Sequence record: MK234886
DNA: 64,000 nt
DNA from: Escherichia phage AnYang
Reading direction: 5' to 3' (one strand)
The first letter of the stretch is position 1, and each line of letters begins with the position of its first letter. The position numbers and the translations under genes are program-made. This document shows, piece by piece, positions 46,072 to 55,700 of this stretch. The notes below the pieces were generated by a model. That model saw only the letters and a program-made list of their open reading frames with translations. It was not told where the DNA came from and ran no database searches.

Positions 46072-47760
<1,689 letters not shown>

Positions 47761-47783
47761 TTTATTCTCCTTAGTTGATAAGG

Positions 47784-47815
47784 CTATAGTATCACTACCA
47801 TAGCCTGGTGTAAAC
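47784..47815 (-). promoter_or_regulatory. T4-type early promoter upstream of the frd.1-like gene
   Basis: Minus strand: GTTTACA, spacer, TGaTACTATAG, then TTATCAACTAAGGAG and the ATG. Confidence 0.5.
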
Positions 47816-48043
47816 TTATTTTTGAATTAAGCCCATATAAAATTTAGCGTCTTCCGGGTGCATACCGTCACAATACTCGTCAGCCATAAAGCGGGTAAGG
47901 TCTTCAAGAGGACCTTGGACTTCAATTTGCATACTGCAGAATTGCGTATCTTTAATATAGGTCATAACTAAAGAAGGATAACGATTACGGATAACTTCGT
48001 AAGTGTATTCAAAATCAACGATATCAATATTAACCTTAGCCAT
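47816..48043 (-). CDS. Hypothetical protein, frd.2-like position
   Basis: 75 aa ORF with GAGG RBS and its own early promoter. Confidence 0.5.
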
Positions 48044-48071
48044 TTTATTTTCCTCATGTAGTTGATAGGTT

Positions 48072-48102
48072 CTATAGTATCATGTTTAAAGGCATTGTAA
48101 AC
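48072..48102 (-). promoter_or_regulatory. T4-type early promoter upstream of the frd.2-like gene
   Basis: Minus strand: GTTTACA, spacer, TGaTACTATAG, then TATCAACTACATGAGG and the ATG. Confidence 0.5.
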
Positions 48103-48110
48103 CATTAAAT

Positions 48111-48138
48111 GCCAAAAAGGGAAGACCGAAGTCTTCCC
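48111..48138 (-). terminator. Rho-independent terminator after gene 32
   Basis: GGGAAGAC-ttcg-GTCTTCCC hairpin followed by TTTTTGG on the minus strand, about 17 nt after the gp32 stop. Confidence 0.7.
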
Positions 48139-48154
48139 ATTATAAATCAATAAC

Positions 48155-49066
48155 TTATAGACCAGCTAACAGGTCGTCCAGACCATCGTCATCAGAAGGA
48201 CTTACTGACGGCTCAGGAGTAGTGGAACGAGCAGGTGTAGACGGTTTGGAATCATATGCATCAAGGTCTGCACTGAATGCGTCCAGGTCATCACCAATCT
48301 TATCAGCGGCTGCAGATGCGACAGCGGCAGCACCACCAAGAGCAGCTGTACCAACAACTTTCTTAAACTTAGCTTCGTTAGTTTCGAATGATTTGAACTC
48401 GAGCAGTTTAGAAAGGTCGTGCATTTCTTCCATCAATTTAGCTTGGTAAGCTTCATCATTGATGTTAGGAATTTCAGACTGACCCATGAATTTGGAATCG
48501 TCATAGTTCTTGAAGTCGCCAACTTTCTTAGATTTCAGTACGAAGTTCGCACCATCAAACGGACATGTTACGTCAACCGGCACTTCACCGATATCAGTAT
48601 CAACTTCAACCATCTGGTTGATTTTATCCATAATTTTCTGACCGAAACGGAATTTAAACACTTTACCTTCGTTAGCAGGCACTGCACTATCCTTAATAAC
48701 AAGGATGTTAGCCCAGAAGGAAGTTTTACGTTTCATCAGTTTGTATTCGGCATTATTAGTATTAAAGGTATCATTCTGGTTCATGTATTTACATACAGGA
48801 CATGAATCGAAATCACCATGAGTAGACGTACATGATTCGATATACCACTGACCATTTTTCTTAAAACCATGGTTAACAAGCTTAACGAATGGGGATGGAT
48901 TAGCTTCGTTTTTCGAAGGAAGGAATCGAATAACTGCGGTTCCTACGCCATTGTCATCTTTCAATTTCCATTCGGATTTGTCATCAGACGAGAAAGAAGA
49001 GCCACCTTTCATTGCAGACAGTTGAGCAGCAAGTTCAGCAGGATTACGGCGTTTAAACATAGACAT
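48155..49066 (-). CDS. 32: Single-stranded DNA-binding protein gp32
   Basis: Extensive identity to T4 gp32 ([21 protein letters not shown], zinc ligands in [25 protein letters not shown]); acidic C-terminal tail. Confidence 0.95.
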
Positions 49067-49135
49067 ATTATTTACCTTATTTGATATATTTAATAAATTT
49101 ATTAACAGTTGTTGTTATCACGTTTACCTTGATAA
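49067..49135 (-). promoter_or_regulatory. AU-rich 5' leader of gene 32, candidate translational autoregulation operator
   Basis: Long A/T-rich unstructured-looking stretch directly 5' of the gp32 start; T4 gp32 autoregulates through such a leader. Confidence 0.4.
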
Positions 49136-49164
49136 CTAGGTTTTGAAGATGAAGTAATTATATA

Positions 49165-49809
49165 TCACTTCGAATAAAGCATTTTTAACTTAATGAATTC
49201 AGGGTCATCATTAGGAACCCAACCCTCATTAAATTGTTTAATCATACTCTTTGATGTAGTTTCACTAACATTTATACCAGAGTTAATGAGACGCCTCCAT
49301 CCACAAGCTCTTCCACTAGAATTAATTATACAATAATTAGTATAAGCAATATCACTAAGCATCCAATCTAAAGGGTTTGCTCTAGAAGTTTTCCAAGGAC
49401 GGTAATCGGGTTGATTCATATAGTTAGCAGCTTTCATATGGGCTCTAACTTCAGGACGTTTGGCTGGGTGAGTGCATCCAAAGACTCCAAATCCGCCACC
49501 GGCATAAACCAAATTAAAATAATCATCATTATCTCTAGCTTGAACTTCCAATTGTTCTGAACGTTCAATATTAATAACAATATCAAATGGCGTTATAGCC
49601 AAAATTTCAACAATAGGTTTTTCTTCTTCGAGGGCCTCTTTAAATCTTGATTGCTCGCAAGAGGTCCAATACTCTTTACCTTTACAGTCAATAATCACGC
49701 CATTTTCAAAAGTACAATTAGTTTTAGAACCTATGTACGAAAACGGCTTAATATTATTAGCCTGACGATTAAGCCAAGTCATTTTATAAACTATATTCAA
49801 AATTGACAA
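49165..49809 (-). CDS. GIY-YIG homing endonuclease-like protein (Seg / I-TevI-like), between genes 59 and 32
   Basis: N-terminal GIY-YIG-like core (NIVYKMT...PFSYIGSKT) and I-TevI-like segments IERSEQLEVQ and FGCTHPAKRPEVRAHMKAA; T4 carries segG at this locus. Confidence 0.6.
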   Translation of the reverse strand: MSILNIVYKMTWLNRQANNIKPFSYIGSKTNCTFENGVIIDCKGKEYWTSCEQSRFKEALEEEKPIVEILAITPFDIVINIERSEQLEVQARDNDDYFNLVYAGGGFGVFGCTHPAKRPEVRAHMKAANYMNQPDYRPWKTSRANPLDWMLSDIAYTNYCIINSSGRACGWRRLINSGINVSETTSKSMIKQFNEGWVPNDDPEFIKLKMLYSK

Positions 49810-50450
49810 CTCTTAATAGTCTCAATGAATAATTTTCTTGCCTCTACAGCATCTATTATAAGAATTTTTTTGTAAGCATTTAATTTAGTCGAATACTTAG
49901 ACCACACTAAATCGTTAGTCTTTTCATCGTGCTTATCAATTATACCCATAAATGAATCAAGCAAAATAAACGTTTCGAATGAAATCACATTTGATTGAAG
50001 GAGCTTAAAAATATAGCTCGAGTTAACTTTTTTATTATAATCAAAAATTTCAGAAAGCGCTTGAACTTCCACTTTCTTACTAAAATAATAAATGTTTTTG
50101 ATATCATCCTCAAAAACTTGTTTTATTCTTTTAAGTCTACCGATATATTCTCGGTAAAAGACTAAGGCGTCAGCATCACTGATGTCGCCAATCCATGCGT
50201 CTTGGTTAGCCACCAAGTTACTCATGAAGATAAGAGCAAGCTCTTTCAAAGTGTATTTATCACTCAATTTCTCAAAGAAATATTTGTCACGACGTTTTTG
50301 ATAAGCCGTATCAGAGATTCGCATGACCCAGTTATATTTTATAACGTCGTATTTGGCATTGAAGTGATGTTTAAGTTGCAAATATAAAGAATACACGCTC
50401 TTACCATTCACCATACGATTGCTGTTTGGTGGCATACGAATCTTAATCAT
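49797..50450 (-). CDS. 59: gp59 helicase-loading protein
   Basis: 217 aa, near-identity to T4 gp59 (KYDVIKYNW, SDTAYQKRRDKYFF, LVANQDAWIGDISDADALVFYREYIGRLK). Confidence 0.94.
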   Translation of the reverse strand: MIKIRMPPNSNRMVNGKSVYSLYLQLKHHFNAKYDVIKYNWVMRISDTAYQKRRDKYFFEKLSDKYTLKELALIFMSNLVANQDAWIGDISDADALVFYREYIGRLKRIKQVFEDDIKNIYYFSKKVEVQALSEIFDYNKKVNSSYIFKLLQSNVISFETFILLDSFMGIIDKHDEKTNDLVWSKYSTKLNAYKKILIIDAVEARKLFIETIKSCQF

Positions 50451-51129
50451 GATATTTCCATCCGGTCCACTTATCGCTTTTTAATCTGTAACTAACCAAA
50501 CTATTAGATATTCCGAATTTGGAAGCCACTTCAGAACATGAATCATAACATATTCCATCGATAAGCAATTTCTTTTTGTATAAGTCTTTAAAAGATTGTG
50601 GCCTAGGTCCTGTATTTGCCTTAAGAAGAGCAGCTCTTGTACTATCAGGCATTTTAGGTCCTTTCTTACCTGCTCTGGATTTACTTAGAGCTTTTCGATG
50701 TGCATCGGTAAGATTAATACCTTTATTTGGTGAAGGTATATTTCTAAGTCTTCTTGTTATAGAAACTTTTTTACAAACACTATCAGGTCGTGGAATACCT
50801 AATTTAGATTTACTTATAGCAAGTTTATGTTCTTCAGATATTTTCTTACCAAGTCCACCTTTACCGCCAACAACCAAATTATAAGTATTCGGGTCTGAAA
50901 CAAATTCTTCGTTAACGAGTTCTCGCTCTTTATCAAAGGCCTCCTCTTGGGAATCCATAACAAAGAGAATTTCTTTTTCAAAATTCTCTATACCATGTTT
51001 TAATATAGCCTTCTTAATTAACTTACCTGAACCCATATAATGGTCATGGCGTTTGGTTTCTTTATGCACACCGATATAAATTTTACCATTCAATTTATTG
51101 GTTACTTTATATACGGTGTGTTTAATCAT
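50443..51129 (-). CDS. GIY-YIG homing endonuclease (Seg-like) with NUMOD3-type repeats, between genes 33 and 59
   Basis: Canonical GIY-YIG core VYKVTNKLNGKIYIGVHKETKRHDHYMGSG; repeats EEHKLAISKSKLG and DAHRKALSKSRAG; C-terminal HTH-like VASKFGISNSLVSYRLKS; no gene at this position in T4. Confidence 0.8.
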   Translation of the reverse strand: MIKHTVYKVTNKLNGKIYIGVHKETKRHDHYMGSGKLIKKAILKHGIENFEKEILFVMDSQEEAFDKERELVNEEFVSDPNTYNLVVGGKGGLGKKISEEHKLAISKSKLGIPRPDSVCKKVSITRRLRNIPSPNKGINLTDAHRKALSKSRAGKKGPKMPDSTRAALLKANTGPRPQSFKDLYKKKLLIDGICYDSCSEVASKFGISNSLVSYRLKSDKWTGWKYHD

Positions 51130-51428
51130 AACAAGAAATCCAGAGTATTAGTCTTTTGCGTTCTGGCCATTGAAGGTCGAAGCAAGTTATCATCAATGGC
51201 TTCGTTCATAATTTTATCAATAATTCCTGCAGGCAAATAACGAGCAAAGTTACCTTCAGGGATGCTGTTCTCTTCCAACCATGCGGTAGCCGCTTCGAGG
51301 TAACTACAACCTTCAGCCTCAACAAAGGCCTCAATATCAAGGCCATTCTGTTGTTTGTTTACCAATACATGGACGGGTTCGGAAGCGGTATTAACCGCTC
51401 CATCAAAATCATTCAAAGATTGTGTCAT
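51126..51428 (-). CDS. 33: gp33 late-transcription co-activator
   Basis: 100 aa acidic ORF between dsbA and gene 59, as T4 gene 33; assigned mainly by synteny and size. Confidence 0.75.
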   Translation of the reverse strand: MTQSLNDFDGAVNTASEPVHVLVNKQQNGLDIEAFVEAEGCSYLEAATAWLEENSIPEGNFARYLPAGIIDKIMNEAIDDNLLRPSMARTQKTNTLDFLL

Positions 51429-51687
51429 ACAGTTCTACCACTTCAGTTTTTTCGTCTTCGAAACGTTCACGAGTGCCTTTATGGTACAAGGAGAACAGCT
51501 GGTTAAACATTTTACCATCTACACCAAGTTCAGTCTTAGCACGGTCTTTGATATCTTTAATTTCGTCACCGTAAGCTTCCATTTTTAATTTAGTATCGGA
51601 AGCCGACTTAATCAGTTGTGCCAATGTGTTACCATGTTCTTCTTGATTGAATTCAACTTTCACTTTTTCTTTAGCCATTATATTCAC
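51409..51687 (-). CDS. dsbA: DsbA double-stranded DNA-binding protein
   Basis: 92 aa ORF between rnh and gene 33 (T4 DsbA about 89 aa); assigned by synteny and size. Confidence 0.75.
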   Translation of the reverse strand: MNIMAKEKVKVEFNQEEHGNTLAQLIKSASDTKLKMEAYGDEIKDIKDRAKTELGVDGKMFNQLFSLYHKGTRERFEDEKTEVVELYDTIFE

Positions 51688-51688
51688 C

Positions 51689-52636
51689 TTAATAAAAATC
51701 AGCTACTGTAGCGGTTAGTTTAGACAAACCGGATTTAACGAAATAAGGATAAACTTTAGATTTCGAAGGTTTGTTATACGTATTATATCTTTCAGTAATT
51801 AAAGCAACAATATCATCTGGAATAAAGTCCATATCAATTAAGATTTGGTTTTCACAGAAACGTTCATATTGTTCTTCAGTAAGAAGTGTTTTAATTATAT
51901 CATGGTCATAATAATTAAGAGCAATTGCTTCAAGTTCCTTGGCACGAGTGCTAGGAGTACGTTCGCCTTCAACCATTGTCAACCAGTAATCACCACGAAC
52001 TTTAATACTCGCAACGTTATCTTTACGGTCGCCTTTAACTACTTTAGTTACACAATCAAGCAAGGCATCGCCAGATTTCGTTTTGACGAATTTTTTCTGC
52101 ATTGGAGACCATTGTTTTACCCCAGGGAATTTATGAAGTTGGGTAAAGTCACCATCCGAAGAACCGATCATAACAGGATGGCCTAAAGCCGTGAGGATGC
52201 GAGTCAATACAGCAATATGGTCATCAGCTTCGATTGTATCGATATTCATAACAATATAAGGCATGTTTTGTTCCAGTTCATCAACAATAATATGCATTGC
52301 AGTGAATAAACCTTCCCAATCAAATGGTGATTCGTCACGTGCCTTAGCACGGTTTTTCTTATAATAAGAAGAATAACGACGACGCCAATAACCTGATTTA
52401 GAGTTATCGACACAAATGATTAATTGGTTGTAACCTTGTTTTTTAAAGTCTTTAATGTTTTTCTTAATTGAATTCAACACGAGATGTCGAAGCATTGCTG
52501 TAGTTACTTTAGGAAATCCAGCATTTTCACCAAATTCTTGGAAAGCCGCAGCCATAATGATTTGGCTGAAGTCTAACAACAAGAATCCATCTTTTTGTTG
52601 GTCTTCTTCAGGAAGTAAAAAATCTAAATCGTTCAT
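51689..52636 (-). CDS. rnh: RNase H (5'-3' exonuclease / flap endonuclease)
   Basis: Extensive identity to T4 RNase H (SKSGYWRR, DEADDHIAVL, SSDGDFTQLHK, KQWSPM); start set at MNDLDF (RBS AGAGGT), the ORF opens at 52669. Confidence 0.93.
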   Translation of the reverse strand: MNDLDFLLPEEDQQKDGFLLLDFSQIIMAAAFQEFGENAGFPKVTTAMLRHLVLNSIKKNIKDFKKQGYNQLIICVDNSKSGYWRRRYSSYYKKNRAKARDESPFDWEGLFTAMHIIVDELEQNMPYIVMNIDTIEADDHIAVLTRILTALGHPVMIGSSDGDFTQLHKFPGVKQWSPMQKKFVKTKSGDALLDCVTKVVKGDRKDNVASIKVRGDYWLTMVEGERTPSTRAKELEAIALNYYDHDIIKTLLTEEQYERFCENQILIDMDFIPDDIVALITERYNTYNKPSKSKVYPYFVKSGLSKLTATVADFY

Positions 52637-52638
52637 AT

Positions 52639-52667
52639 GAACCTCTGTCCAATTAGTGTAGAGGTTC
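52639..52667 (-). promoter_or_regulatory. Stem-loop overlapping the rnh ribosome-binding site
   Basis: GAACCTCT...AGAGGTTC inverted repeat (8-bp stem); the 3' arm contains the rnh Shine-Dalgarno AGAGGT, ending 2 nt before the ATG. Confidence 0.45.
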
Positions 52668-52668
52668 A

Positions 52669-52696
52669 TTATATCATGACCCTAGAAGAAGTAAAC
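52669..52696 (-). promoter_or_regulatory. Early-type promoter upstream of rnh
   Basis: Minus strand: GTTTAC, 14 nt, TGaTATAAT. Confidence 0.5.
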
Positions 52697-52703
52697 ACTT
52701 TGC

Positions 52704-52711
52704 TATAAATA
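52704..52711 (+). promoter_or_regulatory. Late promoter box TATAAATA upstream of gene 34
   Basis: Exact TATAAATA about 33 nt upstream of the gp34 ATG. Confidence 0.6.
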
Positions 52712-52743
52712 GTTCTATACCCTGAAAACGAAAAGGAAATAAA

Positions 52744-55700
52744 ATGGCTGATATTTTAAAACCTGCATTCCGTGCTACATCCGGACTCGATGCTGCGGGC
52801 GAGAAAGTTATCAATGTTGCCAAAGCCGATTACAATGTATTAGATGATGGCGTCAACGTTGAATTCTTTATAGATGAGAACACCATCCAGGCGTACGACG
52901 AGACGCGCGGATATAAGAAAGGGTTTGCAGTAATCCATGACCAACGTATCTGGGTTTCTCAACGTGATATCGATGCTCCTGCAGGAACTTTTACTCCGGG
53001 CTATTGGACCGCTACCCGTACCGACCCTAAATGGATTACCGTAGCATCTCCTACACGCCAGCTGGCTTCCGGTGAATATATTGCGGTGGATTCCGCTGCT
53101 AGCTTTACTACATTTACCCTGCCTCCGAACCCTACTGATGGCGATACCGTTGTAATTAAAGATATTGGTGGACGTGTTGGTTATAACGAAATCAAGGTCC
53201 AATCTAGTTCTGCTCCTGGCGGCGGTAACCAGAAAATTGTTCGTTTTGGTAATCAGTTTACTGAGACCTTAATTACGAAGCCTTTTTCTTATAACATGAT
53301 TATCTTTGCTAACCGTCTTTGGCATTTCTGGGAAGCCGGTAATGAAGAACGTGGTATTCGGGTAGAACCGAACATGGCCCAGTTCCAATCACAAGCAGGT
53401 GATAACGTTCTTCGTCGTTATACTTCAGGTGCAGTAATTAAGTTTACCCTTCCTAAGTATGCGAACCAAGGCGATATGATTAAAACCGTTGATATTGATG
53501 GTTTAGGAAGTAAATTCCACTTAATCGTTGAAACGTTTGATGCTTCGTCTGCATTAGGTAAACCTGGTCAGCATAGCATGGAATTCCGTACCTCCGGTGA
53601 TGGATTCTTTGTTTATAACTCTACCGAAAAATTATGGTATGTTTGGGACGGCGACCGTCAAACTCGTTTACGTGTAATTCGTGACGATGTTGAGCTCTTG
53701 GCTAATGAAAGTGTTATTGTTTTTGGCCCTAATAATACAACGCCGCAGACGATTAATATCACATTACCCACAAGCGTAGCGCAGGGCGATACAATTAAAA
53801 TAGCGTTGAACTATCTTCGTAAAGCCCAGACAGTAAATATTAAGGCTGCTGTAGGAGACAAAATAGCTTCTTCGGTTCAATTGCTCCAGTTCCCTAAACG
53901 CTCTGAATATCCGCCGGATACTGAATGGGTTCTGAATGATGTGCTGACCTTCAATGGTAACTTGAGTTATACTCCTGTTATTGAGCTTAGCTATATTGAA
54001 GATTCTACTACAGATGCCAAATATTGGGTTGTGGCTCAGAACGTTCCTACTGTAGAACGTGTGGATTCTAAGGATGATTTAACCCGTGCTCGTCTTGGTG
54101 TTATTGCTCTAGCGTCACAGACCCAAGCAAACGTAGACCATGAAAATAATCCTGAAAAAGAACTGGCTATCACTCCACAGACTTTAGCCAATCGTGTAGC
54201 GACTGAATCACGTCGTGGTATTGCTCGTATTGCTACAACTGCTCAGGTAAACCAGAATACTGGATTTGCATTCCAGGACGATTTGATTATTTCTCCTAAG
54301 AAATTAAACGAACGTACTGCTACCGAAACTCGTCGTGGTGTAGCTGAAATTGCTACGCAACAGGAAACTGATGCAGGTGTTGATGATACAACCATTATCA
54401 CTCCTAAGAAGCTACAGACGCGCCAGGGAACTGAAACCCTGTCCGGTATAGTAAAATACGTATCCACCACAGGAACCACTCCTGCGACTTCTAGAGCAAC
54501 TGTAGGTACTAACGTTTATAATAAGAACACAACTACTTTGGTTATTTCTCCTAAAGCTTTAGACCAATATAAAGCTAACTACGAGAACCAAGGCGCTGTA
54601 TATCTTGCAACTGCCCCGGAAGTTAATGCTGGTACTACTAATCCTGGATTCCAGAATGCTGTAGTTACTCCTGAAATGTTACACCAACGTGTGGCCCTTG
54701 ATAGTCGTACAGGTTTAATTGAAATTGCTACGCAAGCAGAAACTGATACTGGAACTGATTATACTCGTGCGGTAACGCCTAAGACGTTAAATGATAGAAA
54801 GGCTACAGAGACTTTAACGGGTATTGCTCGTATTGGTACTCAAGTAGAATTTGATGCAGGTGTATTAGATAATGTTATTTCAACTCCGTTGAAAGTTAAA
54901 ACAAGATTTAATGATACTGCTAGAACTTCTGTCTCAGCAGCCAGTGGTTTGATTGAATCAGGAACCTTATGGAACCATTATACACTAGATATCCGTGAAG
55001 CAAGTAATACTCAACGTGGTACGGCTCGTTTGGCTACCCAAACTGAAGTTAATACTGGTACTGATGACAAAACAATCATCACTCCACTTAAGCTTCAAGC
55101 TAAAAAGGCTACCGAAAACGCTGAAGGTATTATCCAACTCGCTACTCAGGCCGAAGTTATTGATGGTACGGTAAGTAATAAAGCGTTTAGTCCTAAGCAT
55201 TACAAATATATCGTCCAACAGGAAAAATCCTGGGAAGCTACTTCTGCTCGTAGAGGATATGTTAAATTAACCACAGGTACAGCCACTTGGGAAGGTGACG
55301 ATACTAATGGTTCTGTTGCTAACCTAGCTAAATTTGAAGATAACGGCTTTGCTATTTCCCCTCTTCAAATGAACACTGCTTTAACTCATTATCTTCCGAT
55401 TAAAGGTAAGGCTTTTGACAGTGATAAATTAGATGGATTTGATTCTACGCAGTTTATTCGTCGTGATATAGCACAAGATATTAATGCTAATATGACATTT
55501 AAACAGCCTGTAAGAATTGAAAACACTTTAGCGGTCACCGGTGCGGTTAATTTGAGTGGCTCTGTTATTTCAAATAATACTACATTAACCGGTTCTACTA
55601 CAGTCAATAGCAATTCTACTATGGGTGCTTTGAATTACATTGAGTTCACTTCAGAATCTCAAGGTGCGGGTACTTGGAACTCTCAACACAATAGTAATGT

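Follow-up and report, generated by a model that had tools for sequence, protein, structure and literature searches.

The window, by which we mean the whole 64,000-nt stretch of Escherichia phage AnYang (MK234886) analysed here, derives from a Dhakavirus (JS98-like T4-type phage). On its minus strand, the genes follow one another in the order 32, ORF1, 59, ORF2 and 33. The two open reading frames that an earlier sequence-only reading had placed at 49165–49809 and 50443–51129, flanking gene 59, are present there on the minus strand, and the locus comprises:

48155–49066, minus strand: gene 32 (ssDNA-binding protein), identified by Pfam gp32
49165–49800, minus strand: ORF1, very probably a SegG-family free-standing GIY-YIG homing endonuclease gene, 211 aa from the likely TTG start at 49800
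49165–49809, minus strand: the longest reading frame of ORF1, 214 aa from the first TTG
49797–50450, minus strand: gene 59 (helicase loader), the bracketed gene, 217 aa, with Pfam T4_Gp59_N (E 2e-46) and T4_Gp59_C (E 3e-38)
50443–51129, minus strand: ORF2, very probably a Seg-type free-standing GIY-YIG homing endonuclease gene of I-TevI architecture, 228 aa from an ATG
51126–51428, minus strand: gene 33 (late-transcription co-activator), the upstream neighbour of ORF2, identified by Pfam Trans_coact

The Pfam assignments place the genes for gp32 and gp33 directly outside the ORF1-59-ORF2 block. ORF1 and ORF2 each lie between complete genes (32, 59 and 33), and thus neither is embedded in an intron or intein. 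A search of 47500–52800 for group I introns gave no Rfam match (two sub-threshold chance hits only), and the td gene in the window is a single uninterrupted ORF. With both proteins as tblastn queries, no further Seg paralogues were detected elsewhere in the window.

The product of ORF2 exceeds the curated cut-offs of four Pfam models: GIY-YIG PF01541 (24.0 bits, cut-off 22.6), SegE_GIY-YIG PF19835 (26.3 bits, cut-off 25), NUMOD3 PF07460 (22.7 bits, cut-off 20.4; residues 140–158) and I-TevI_DNA-bd PF20987 (53.9 bits, cut-off 27; residues 185–226). NCBIfam TIGR01453 ‘group I intron endonuclease’ recognizes it as well (85.9 bits, cut-off 56.05; model positions 1–212 of 215), and it is therefore not a chance ORF. 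The protein divides into two parts:

50854–51129, minus strand: ORF2 GIY-YIG catalytic domain, aa 1–92, with Y7, Y18-I-G20, E68-R-E70 and Y83-N84
50452–50841, minus strand: ORF2 linker with NUMOD3 repeats (aa ~97–175, PF07460) and C-terminal I-TevI-type HTH (aa 185–226, PF20987)

ORF2 thus has the GIY-YIG fold of the I-TevI/Seg type, an extended NUMOD3 linker and the C-terminal HTH, and these models together with the I-TevI alignment bear out the architecture that had been proposed for it from the sequence alone. In the HMMER alignment, Y7, Y18, E70 and N84 of ORF2 pair with Y6, Y17, E75 and N90 of I-TevI, and these four columns are invariant or nearly so across 40 homologues. With regard to the catalytic Arg27 of I-TevI, R27 of ORF2 lies seven residues past the YIG glycine in a column that is variable in the family and at which the aligners open a gap. 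The likeness to I-TevI (T4 td intron; PDB 1LN0/1MK0, 1I3J/1T2T) is strongest in the DNA-binding domain (phmmer E 1.9e-7), with 1I3J aligning to residues 149–226, whereas the catalytic domain matches weakly (phmmer E ~0.1), the helix equivalent to the Arg27 helix is shorter and its Arg is not conserved in the family column. A further difference is that ORF2 is free-standing, outside any intron. In common with T4 SegA-F/SegH, ORF2 belongs to the Seg subfamily of GIY-YIG enzymes (PF19835, PHROG 314), is flanked by essential genes and seems to have no promoter of its own, although its best T4 paralogue is only ~31% identical and T4 has no seg gene at the 33/59 junction.

ORF1 is matched from end to end by PHROG 7504 ‘homing endonuclease’ (E 2.4e-113, model positions 1–210 of 210) and by T4 SegG with 58.8% identity over residues 4–211 (E 4e-74), and on these grounds is likewise not a chance ORF. 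Judged by its sequence, it is an orthologue of T4 SegG. Its position between genes 59 and 32 and its orientation are also those of the T4 gene, so the earlier assignment to the T4 segG locus holds. Both gene 59 neighbours can accordingly be taken as the GIY-YIG endonuclease genes they were proposed to be, ORF1 by PHROG and SegG homology and ORF2 by Pfam and NCBIfam. Two domains are recognized in ORF1:

49501–49800, minus strand: ORF1 N-terminal GIY-YIG domain, ~aa 1–100, with motifs IVY (Y5), YIGSK (Y22-K26), R52-F53, E79-R80 and YFNL (N96)
49168–49473, minus strand: ORF1 C-terminal helical domain, ~aa 110–211, presumed DNA-binding module

No match to ORF1 was found in Pfam or NCBIfam, and T4 SegG, an active enzyme, is likewise without a Pfam match. 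The modelled fold of ORF1 is GIY-YIG, in keeping with the catalytic domain of the SegG family. A profile–profile comparison of the ORF1 and ORF2 families was weak (E 0.033) and spanned 39 columns only, so the homology of ORF1 to GIY-YIG proteins rests on fold and motifs and not on sequence profiles. The absence of a catalytic Glu, which would have spoken against the earlier proposal, was not encountered, as equivalents of the Glu and Asn of I-TevI are found in both ORF1 and ORF2. The best ORF1 candidate for the Arg27 equivalent is R52, which is only nearly invariant in the family. Over its whole length, ORF1 shows a dN/dS of 0.11 against the VR5 allele, indicating that the protein is under selection. 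Both proteins would be expected to possess nuclease activity.

The reading frame given previously for ORF1 stands, although its start probably does not: alignment with the N-termini of the SegG family makes the in-frame TTG at 49800, not 49809, the most likely initiation codon. In the alignment, this TTG falls at Met1 of T4 SegG (MNIVY...) and at the point where most other members of the family begin; it also overlaps the gene 59 stop codon as TTGA. In the GenBank records of Bp7, MX01, IME540 and VR5, the start is annotated at an internal ATG (49782 in the window), which would yield a product without the GIY strand; the residues MNIVY upstream of this ATG are conserved across the SegG family, most members of which start there. 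As a codon, the TTG of ORF1 is a weak start. The T4 gene itself begins with an ATG one base past the gene 59 stop. The two proteins share the MNIVY N-terminus and the YIGSK, ER and YFNLVYAGGGFG motifs. Their C-terminal residues differ because the frames end in different recipient sequence, and the host lineage of ORF1 is Dhakavirus.

At the other end of ORF1 lies a promoter-like element, found by pattern match:

49157–49181, minus strand: T4 middle-promoter-like motif (MotA box TGCTTTA, 12 nt, TATAAT), presumed gene 32 promoter

The motif overlaps the final codons of ORF1 together with its stop, is present in 14 of 14 Dhakavirus relatives, and in the endonuclease-less JS98 begins at the gene 59 stop codon. 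The ORF1 insert (~49182–49796) lies between the gene 59 stop codon and the middle-promoter box of gene 32; translation most likely starts from the TTG that overlaps the former, and the frame continues into older promoter sequence. Activity of the motif as the gene 32 promoter is suggested by its sequence. In T4, the middle and late promoters of gene 32 are located within segG (PMC2988022), and the embedded element at the 3′ end of ORF1 recalls this arrangement. The canonical T4 late promoter TATAAATA had zero minus-strand matches in 48000–52700 and none near ORF1. A TTGTCA-17-TAAAAT match at 49809–49781 was set aside as a promoter, since a sigma-70-type scan returned 11 sites versus 18 in shuffled sequence.

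To trace the two slots, we compared 15 Dhakavirus genomes, a small set in which only 3 carry ORF2. ORF1 and ORF2 occur together in the AnYang window and IME540. ORF1 alone is found in Bp7, FB, PSD2002, MX01 and VR5. A different SegG-family allele, typified by NC-G, occupies the same 59/32 slot and also belongs to PHROG 7504, with 30% amino acid identity to ORF1; it accompanies ORF2 in LQ5 and stands alone in NC-G and 04086. Neither slot is filled in JS98, IME341, IME08, fDHCT2 and ESCO10, and JS98 and JS10, the first sequenced members of the lineage, were reported without homing endonuclease genes (PMC2993671). The two slots thus appear in five combinations and assort independently. An identical arrangement in all close relatives, which would have counted against mobility, is not what we observe, as carriers of both genes, of one and of neither exist. 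The empty sites are clean and resolved to a single base in otherwise collinear relatives, and junction alignments with relatives lacking the inserts, a comparison that had been recommended, define the insertion boundaries to the base. Outside the AnYang window, the ORF2 allele was found at an identity of at least 99% in just 2 of 50,697 phage-collection records.

The junction alignments show that the ORF2 insert is 679 bp long and is bounded by exact 8-bp direct repeats, the empty site being an exact single copy:

51122–51129, minus strand: ATGATTAA, start of ORF2 and upstream copy of the 8-bp repeat bounding the 679-bp insert
50443–50450, minus strand: ATGATTAA, start of gene 59 and downstream copy of the 8-bp repeat, within the last ORF2 codons (…TAT CAT GAT TAA)

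The ORF2 ATG overlaps the gp33 stop codon as ATGA. In T4, genes 33 and 59 overlap by 4 nt with no gene between them. ORF2 is inserted at the gene 33/gene 59 overlap and uses for itself the ATG and upstream context from which gene 59 starts in phages without the endonuclease; its own last codons rebuild the gene 59 start. Hairpin-type translational control is known for I-TevI and mobE. Folding of 81-nt RNA windows around the start codons of gene 59, ORF1 and ORF2 and around the JS98 empty site revealed no RBS-sequestering hairpins, each window doing no better than its shuffles (z from -0.78 to +0.80); the folding therefore gives no sign of I-TevI/mobE-like translational control.

The earlier statement that T4 has no equivalent of ORF2 between genes 33 and 59 is correct, yet ORF2-type genes are common there in other T4-like genera. 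Homologues with 49–58% identity lie at the 33/59 junction in Mosigvirus, Winklervirus and two metagenomic T4-like lineages; being only about half identical, ORF2 is not a recent transfer from any of these. Mosigvirus Shf125875 gp170 (annotated ‘SegH-like’) and Winklervirus CHI14 gp169 (annotated ‘segD’) share the site, orientation and architecture of ORF2, and the 33/59 homologues show the same 4-nt ATGA overlap with gene 33 and, except in CHI14, the same 8-nt overlap with gene 59. Of 168 Mosigvirus records that match a 33-endonuclease-59 query, 29 span at least 80% of it, and most others match only the two flanking genes. The gene is consequently polymorphic within that genus, as ORF2 is within Dhakavirus, although in the latter ORF2 is rare (2 database records and the AnYang window). 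We found no experimental characterization of Seg-like genes at the 33/59 junction in the literature.

Among carriers, the endonuclease genes differ by a mean pairwise 0.2–0.3%, against 2.5–4.5% in the neighbouring genes. In six ORF1 carriers, ORF1 itself varies by 0.21%, the 32-proximal spacer by 0% and 5′ gene 32 by 0.13%; across these six genomes, gene 59 varies by 4.5% and 3′ gene 32 by 1.6%. The three genomes with ORF2 are 0.29% apart in that gene, versus 2.5% in gene 33 and 4.3% in 3′ gene 59. The first ~290 bp of gene 32 (~48780–49066) form one haplotype block with ORF1 that ends ~260–290 nt into the gene; between 48803 and 49066, ORF1 carriers and non-carriers are 14.5% apart, compared with 2.25% in the 3′ part of the gene. 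This block reaches the 5′ region of gene 32 in which T4 SegG cuts and lends indirect support to cleavage by ORF1 within gene 32. Carriers of the NC-G-type allele have the same gene 32 haplotype as the endonuclease-less phages. On the ORF2 side, the first ~110 nt of gene 59 are 12.8% different between carriers and non-carriers, the rest of the gene 4.8%. The divergent first part includes the following stretch:

50370–50396, minus strand: gene 59 codons 19–27, haplotype private to ORF2 carriers, with 9 nt changes in 24 nt, including M25Q

Codon 25 is Met in all other lineages examined, and codons 19–27 may represent a co-conversion tract or a patch conferring immunity to cleavage. Within Mosigvirus, possession of the 33/59 gene goes with no consistent difference in the first 120 nt of gene 59, and target-site immunity was rejected for that genus. 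Because the Mosigvirus carriers do not differ, the private Dhakavirus haplotype may represent hitch-hiking donor sequence and not a change of target site.

Evidence of co-conversion of flanking markers is therefore seen at the population level, in the block that joins ORF1 to 5′ gene 32 and in that joining ORF2 to gene 59 codons 19–27. The earlier suggestion of a recombination hotspot spanning genes 32, 59 and 33 fared less well: the linked blocks in genes 32 and 59 agree with it, but no haplotype linked to ORF2 was detected in gene 33 of the Dhakavirus set, and by the Hudson–Kaplan minimum recombination count gene 59 does not stand out (21.8 per kb, compared with 17.9 in 3′ gene 32, 23.4 in gene 33 and 42.5 in dsbA). 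Minimum recombination events amount to 18–47 per kb across the region, high everywhere, and a special hotspot at this locus is not demonstrated.

In view of these data, we consider it very probable that gene 59 of this Dhakavirus is flanked by two inserted homing endonuclease genes of the free-standing (‘intronless’) GIY-YIG type, ORF1 and ORF2. Both are ordinary members of well-known families and constitute no new kind of system. T4 SegG (gp32.1) provides the precedent. It is a free-standing GIY-YIG homing endonuclease according to Liu et al. 2003 (J Mol Biol 334:13), as summarized in PMC2988022; its gene lies between 32 and 59 and contains gene 32 promoters, and the enzyme cleaves gene 32 and, in crosses, excludes that of T2 (PMC2988022; PMC2330249; PMC535899). 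By inference from this system, each enzyme would cut the empty allele of a relative near its own insertion site during mixed infection. For ORF1, the analogy with T4 SegG points to a cut within ~300 bp of the gene 32 start; ORF2 would cut either at the 33/59 junction or within ~90 bp of the gene 59 start. Recombinational repair of the T4 type would then copy the endonuclease gene from the carrier genome, along with the sequence separating cut and insert.

The patchy distribution could instead reflect repeated loss from an ancestor with both genes, with ORF2 excised through the ATGATTAA repeat. Loss is a recognized phase of the homing endonuclease life cycle, and the insert is bounded by an exact direct repeat that could mediate precise excision, with an exact single copy at the empty site. 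We nevertheless regard this as improbable, since ancient vertical inheritance predicts similar divergence in the endonuclease genes and their flanks, which is contradicted by the 0.2–0.3% of the former against the 2.5–4.5% of the flanking genes; the linked flanks are 13–15% diverged from non-carrier alleles, as if from a more distant donor, and the near-identical ORF2 allele is confined to a couple of records in the phage collection. It is about equally unlikely that the linked haplotypes reflect shared ancestry of the carriers, or pervasive T4-like recombination, and not endonuclease-driven co-conversion. The sample is small, and the high minimum event counts throughout the region, with gene 59 not elevated, fit such an origin. 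The association is, however, strictly local, and the carriers regroup a few hundred bp away, the 3′ part of AnYang gene 59 matching LQ5 and 04086 and not IME540 or Bp7; moreover, the blocks of low diversity sit at the endonuclease genes and reach beyond them only in the direction in which T4 SegG is known to cut (PMC2988022).

For ORF1, one may also ask whether it is a domesticated or inactive SegG remnant, perhaps truncated to start at ATG 49782, that is kept for the gene 32 promoter and leader context. Its invisibility to Pfam and NCBIfam, a full-length start at TTG only, the internal ATG of several records and the promoter-like motif overlapping its 3′ end are compatible with this, and embedded promoters have been argued to favour retention of such endonuclease genes (review PMC2988022). 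The remnant is, however, very unlikely: purifying selection acts across the whole length, the conserved MNIVY lies upstream of the ATG where most family members begin, the active T4 SegG is equally invisible to Pfam, and the modelled fold is that of a GIY-YIG protein. ORF1 is also not needed to supply the gene 32 promoter, because the motif exists in phages without it, and the near-identity of ORF1 and 5′ gene 32 in six otherwise diverged genomes suggests recent spread.

Returning to two homing endonuclease genes as the preferred reading, a bolder extension can be formulated, which we hold to be doubtful. The ORF2 clade would be an uncharacterized Seg lineage dedicated to the 33/59 overlap across T4-like genera and hard to lose through its capture of translation initiation of the essential gene 59; the ORF1-type and NC-G-type SegG alleles would be competing endonucleases with different target specificities; and the M25Q patch of gene 59 would be a cleavage-immunity change at an otherwise invariant residue. 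If so, ORF2 would take the ATGA coupling to gene 33, gene 59 would start from the ATGATTAA in the C-terminal codons of the endonuclease, and expression of gene 59 would be translationally coupled to a selfish gene.

The locus offers a clean natural example of intronless homing, in which two unrelated-looking GIY-YIG cassettes surround an essential replication gene and public genomes show the matching empty sites, the independent assortment and haplotype blocks resembling sweeps. Several GenBank records would receive a corrected start codon for their SegG-like gene, and base-level empty-site sequences and predicted target regions are now given for cleavage assays. Genes 32 and 59 are flagged as regions in which marker exclusion would bias crosses and engineering of JS98-group therapeutic phages.

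Two free-standing homing endonuclease genes of the GIY-YIG type bracket gene 59 in the window: a SegG orthologue (ORF1) and a Seg enzyme with I-TevI architecture (ORF2), for both of which we infer nuclease activity. The sequence-only reading had proposed this arrangement, and profiles, SegG orthology and synteny bear it out in substance. In the ORF listing, ORF1, gene 59 and ORF2 are three consecutive minus-strand ORFs:

48155-49066, gene 32 (Pfam gp32), one flank of the trio
49165-49809, minus strand, ORF1 in its longest frame, 214 aa from a TTG
49797-50450, minus strand, gene 59, 217 aa, both Pfam gp59 domains (E 2e-46 and 3e-38)
50443-51129, minus strand, ORF2, 228 aa
51126-51428, gene 33 (Pfam gp33), the opposite flank, with dsbA and rnh beyond

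Megablast assigned the window to the genus Dhakavirus (JS98-like T4-type coliphages), with IME540 as the best match to 48100-51500 (98.4% identity, 100% coverage). For a 24-kb query, coverage by any database record did not exceed 88% and the three best-covering records were 91.3-95.2% identical, which identifies the phage as a distinct mosaic Dhakavirus member. The two endonuclease genes represent familiar kinds, and GenBank already contains near-identical copies of them, some annotated as hypothetical proteins and some with a truncated start. T4 has a td group I intron with I-TevI; here the td (thymidylate synthase) gene (46072-46935) is one unbroken 287-aa ORF, and the intron and I-TevI appear to be absent. 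The frd-gene 32 segment at 47770-48050 shows only about 41-48% identity to every relative compared, with adjoining genes at 92-99%, and contains a 75-aa ORF (47816-48043; PHROG 1764, unknown function); it looks like a small hypervariable cassette in place of the relatives' frd.2-type genes. The sequence directly downstream of the gene 32 stop, GGGAAGACTTCGGTCTTCCC and then TTTTT (48119-48138, minus strand), resembles a terminator, with a strong hairpin.

ORF2 exceeds the curated Pfam cut-offs for GIY-YIG, SegE_GIY-YIG, NUMOD3 and I-TevI_DNA-bd as well as that of NCBIfam TIGR01453 'group I intron endonuclease', whose 215 model positions are matched from 1 to 212. Among PDB sequences, phmmer picked out 1I3J, the DNA-binding domain of I-TevI (E 1.9e-7). 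The GIY-YIG core, NUMOD3 repeats and C-terminal HTH predicted earlier are thus upheld, and ORF2 shares with I-TevI the GIY-YIG domain, NUMOD3 and the I-TevI-type DNA-binding domain. The I-TevI catalytic domain aligned weakly, giving Y7/Y6, Y18/Y17, E70/E75 and N84/N90 (ORF2/I-TevI), and across 40 homologues the four columns vary little or not at all. The counterpart of I-TevI Arg27 is less certain: ORF2 has R27, in a column that is unconserved among ORF2 homologues.

ORF1 gave no match in Pfam or NCBIfam, but PHROG 7504 'homing endonuclease' covers it end to end (E 2.4e-113), and tblastn aligned T4 SegG over residues 4-211 at 58.8% identity. ORF1 sits in the identical slot, flanked by genes 59 and 32, so the assignment to the T4 segG locus holds as orthology. 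Since T4 SegG, whose activity has been demonstrated experimentally (PMC2988022, PMC2330249), likewise lacks a Pfam match, the Pfam silence reflects a divergent subfamily and not decay. Invariant in the family are Y5 (IVY), Y22-I-G-S-K, E79-R80 and N96 (YFNL), with R52 nearly so; the C-terminal half is modelled as helices packed in a bundle, weakly similar to three-helix DNA-binding domains. Comparison with the 83%-identical VR5 allele (dS 0.86, dN 0.094, dN/dS 0.11) indicates purifying selection on the protein. The N-terminus of T4 SegG and most family members, MNIVY, falls in the window at an in-frame TTG (49800-49798) that shares bases with the TGA stop of gene 59 (TTGA). GenBank records of Bp7, MX01, IME540 and VR5 place the start at ATG 49782 (205 or 203 aa), which drops the conserved MNIVY, the GIY strand of the GIY-YIG motif, and the 211-aa form from the upstream TTG is annotated in FB and PSD2002. 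TTG 49800 is the likely start of ORF1.

The mobility proposed for these genes is supported by their arrangement in close relatives, as the 15 Dhakavirus loci sampled, window included, fall into five states:

ORF1 and ORF2: this window, IME540
NC-G-type SegG-family allele and ORF2: LQ5
ORF1 alone: Bp7, FB, PSD2002, MX01, VR5
NC-G-type allele alone: NC-G, 04086
Neither slot filled: JS98, IME341, IME08, fDHCT2, ESCO10

The 59/32 and 33/59 slots therefore assort independently. JS98 and JS10, the earliest sequenced in the group, are listed without homing endonuclease genes (PMC2993671). The NC-G-type allele is a second, very divergent SegG-family form in the 59/32 slot, 30% identical to ORF1; it matches both PHROG 7504 and PHROG 314, and over its first ~20 nt (TTGAATATAGT...) as well as at its promoter-proximal end it agrees with ORF1. 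Only 2 database records match the ORF2 allele at >=99% identity, so this allele is rare.

Alignment with relatives lacking the inserts delimits both. In those without ORF2, genes 33 and 59 overlap as ATGA. The ORF2 insert is 679 bp: the relatives' upstream sequence and first eight bases, ATGATTAA, open ORF2 in the window, and a second ATGATTAA, encoded by the last ORF2 codons (…TAT CAT GAT TAA), opens gene 59, so that the insert is bounded by an 8-bp direct repeat. On this alignment, the original upstream context of gene 59 is taken over by ORF2, and translation of gene 59 may be coupled to it. A T4 middle-promoter-like motif (TGCTTTA, 12 nt, TATAAT) at 49181-49157 overlaps the last ORF1 codons; as it is found in 14 of 14 relatives and starts at the gene 59 stop codon in endonuclease-less JS98, the ORF1 insert spans about 49182-49796 and its frame continues into older promoter DNA. 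T4 is alike, with gene 32 promoters inside segG and a segG frame that continues into the leader of gene 32 (PMC2988022; PMC535899), as the ORF1 frame enters putative promoter DNA upstream of gene 32. A second match to the same MotA-box pattern (TGCTTTA, 12 nt, TATAAT) lies at 51782-51806 on the minus strand inside 3' rnh, upstream of dsbA, gene 33, ORF2 and gene 59, and is a candidate promoter for the ORF2 transcript. Searches for RBS-sequestering hairpins and a canonical late promoter found none, and an Rfam scan gave no relevant matches.

ORF2 homologues (49-58% identity) also occupy the space separating gene 33 from gene 59 in Mosigvirus (Shf125875 and others), Winklervirus (CHI14) and two metagenomic T4-like lineages, with the same 4-nt upstream overlap and, CHI14 excepted, the 8-nt downstream overlap; judged from these placements, the clade is specific to the 33/59 junction. 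The double bracket of gene 59 recurs in an uncultured T4-like phage contig (Logan ERR2738013, 2501-4511), which carries gene 33, an ORF2 homologue (53% identity), gene 59, a 221-aa SegG-family ORF and gene 32. Mosigvirus is polymorphic, 29 of 168 matching records covering >=80% of a 33-endonuclease-59 query.

Among carriers, the endonuclease genes are sharply less diverse than their surroundings (mean pairwise difference):

6 ORF1 carriers, ORF1: 0.21%
6 ORF1 carriers, spacer adjoining gene 32: 0%
6 ORF1 carriers, gene 32, 48803-49066: 0.13%
6 ORF1 carriers, gene 32 3' part: 1.6%
6 ORF1 carriers, gene 59: 4.5%
3 ORF2 carriers, ORF2: 0.29%
3 ORF2 carriers, gene 33: 2.5%
3 ORF2 carriers, gene 59 3' part: 4.3%

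Between ORF1 carriers and non-carriers, gene 32 is 14.5% different over its first ~260-290 bp and 2.25% different beyond. NC-G-type carriers (NC-G, 04086, LQ5) share their gene 32 haplotype with endonuclease-less phages. The association of genes and flanks is local: at the 3' end of gene 59 the window matches LQ5 and 04086 and not other ORF1 carriers, and the haplotype switches no more than about 10 bp from the ORF1 start. The ORF1-linked block extends toward gene 32 and ends at the gene 59 side, the direction predicted by the T4 SegG mechanism: acting in the same way, ORF1 would cut gene 32 and impose obligatory co-conversion of the DNA from cut to insert. The cleavage sites of ORF1 and ORF2 are putative. 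At the other locus, gene 59 codons 19-27 hold a patch private to ORF2 carriers (9 changes in 24 nt), including M25Q at a codon that is Met in all other lineages examined. Codon 10 (50421-50422) is AGC (Ser) in the window only and AAT (Asn) in 14 of 14 relatives, a private change that falls within the ORF2-linked block.

The suggestion that genes 32, 59 and 33 may form a recombination hotspot finds only partial support: linked flanks occur in genes 32 and 59, but gene 33 has no haplotype linked to ORF2, and minimum recombination counts, high throughout the region (18-47 per kb), do not rise in gene 59. As Mosigvirus carriers show no private gene 59 haplotype, the Dhakavirus patch may represent donor DNA that hitch-hiked in, and not a change at the target site. 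The population-level footprints at both loci are consistent with recent homing.
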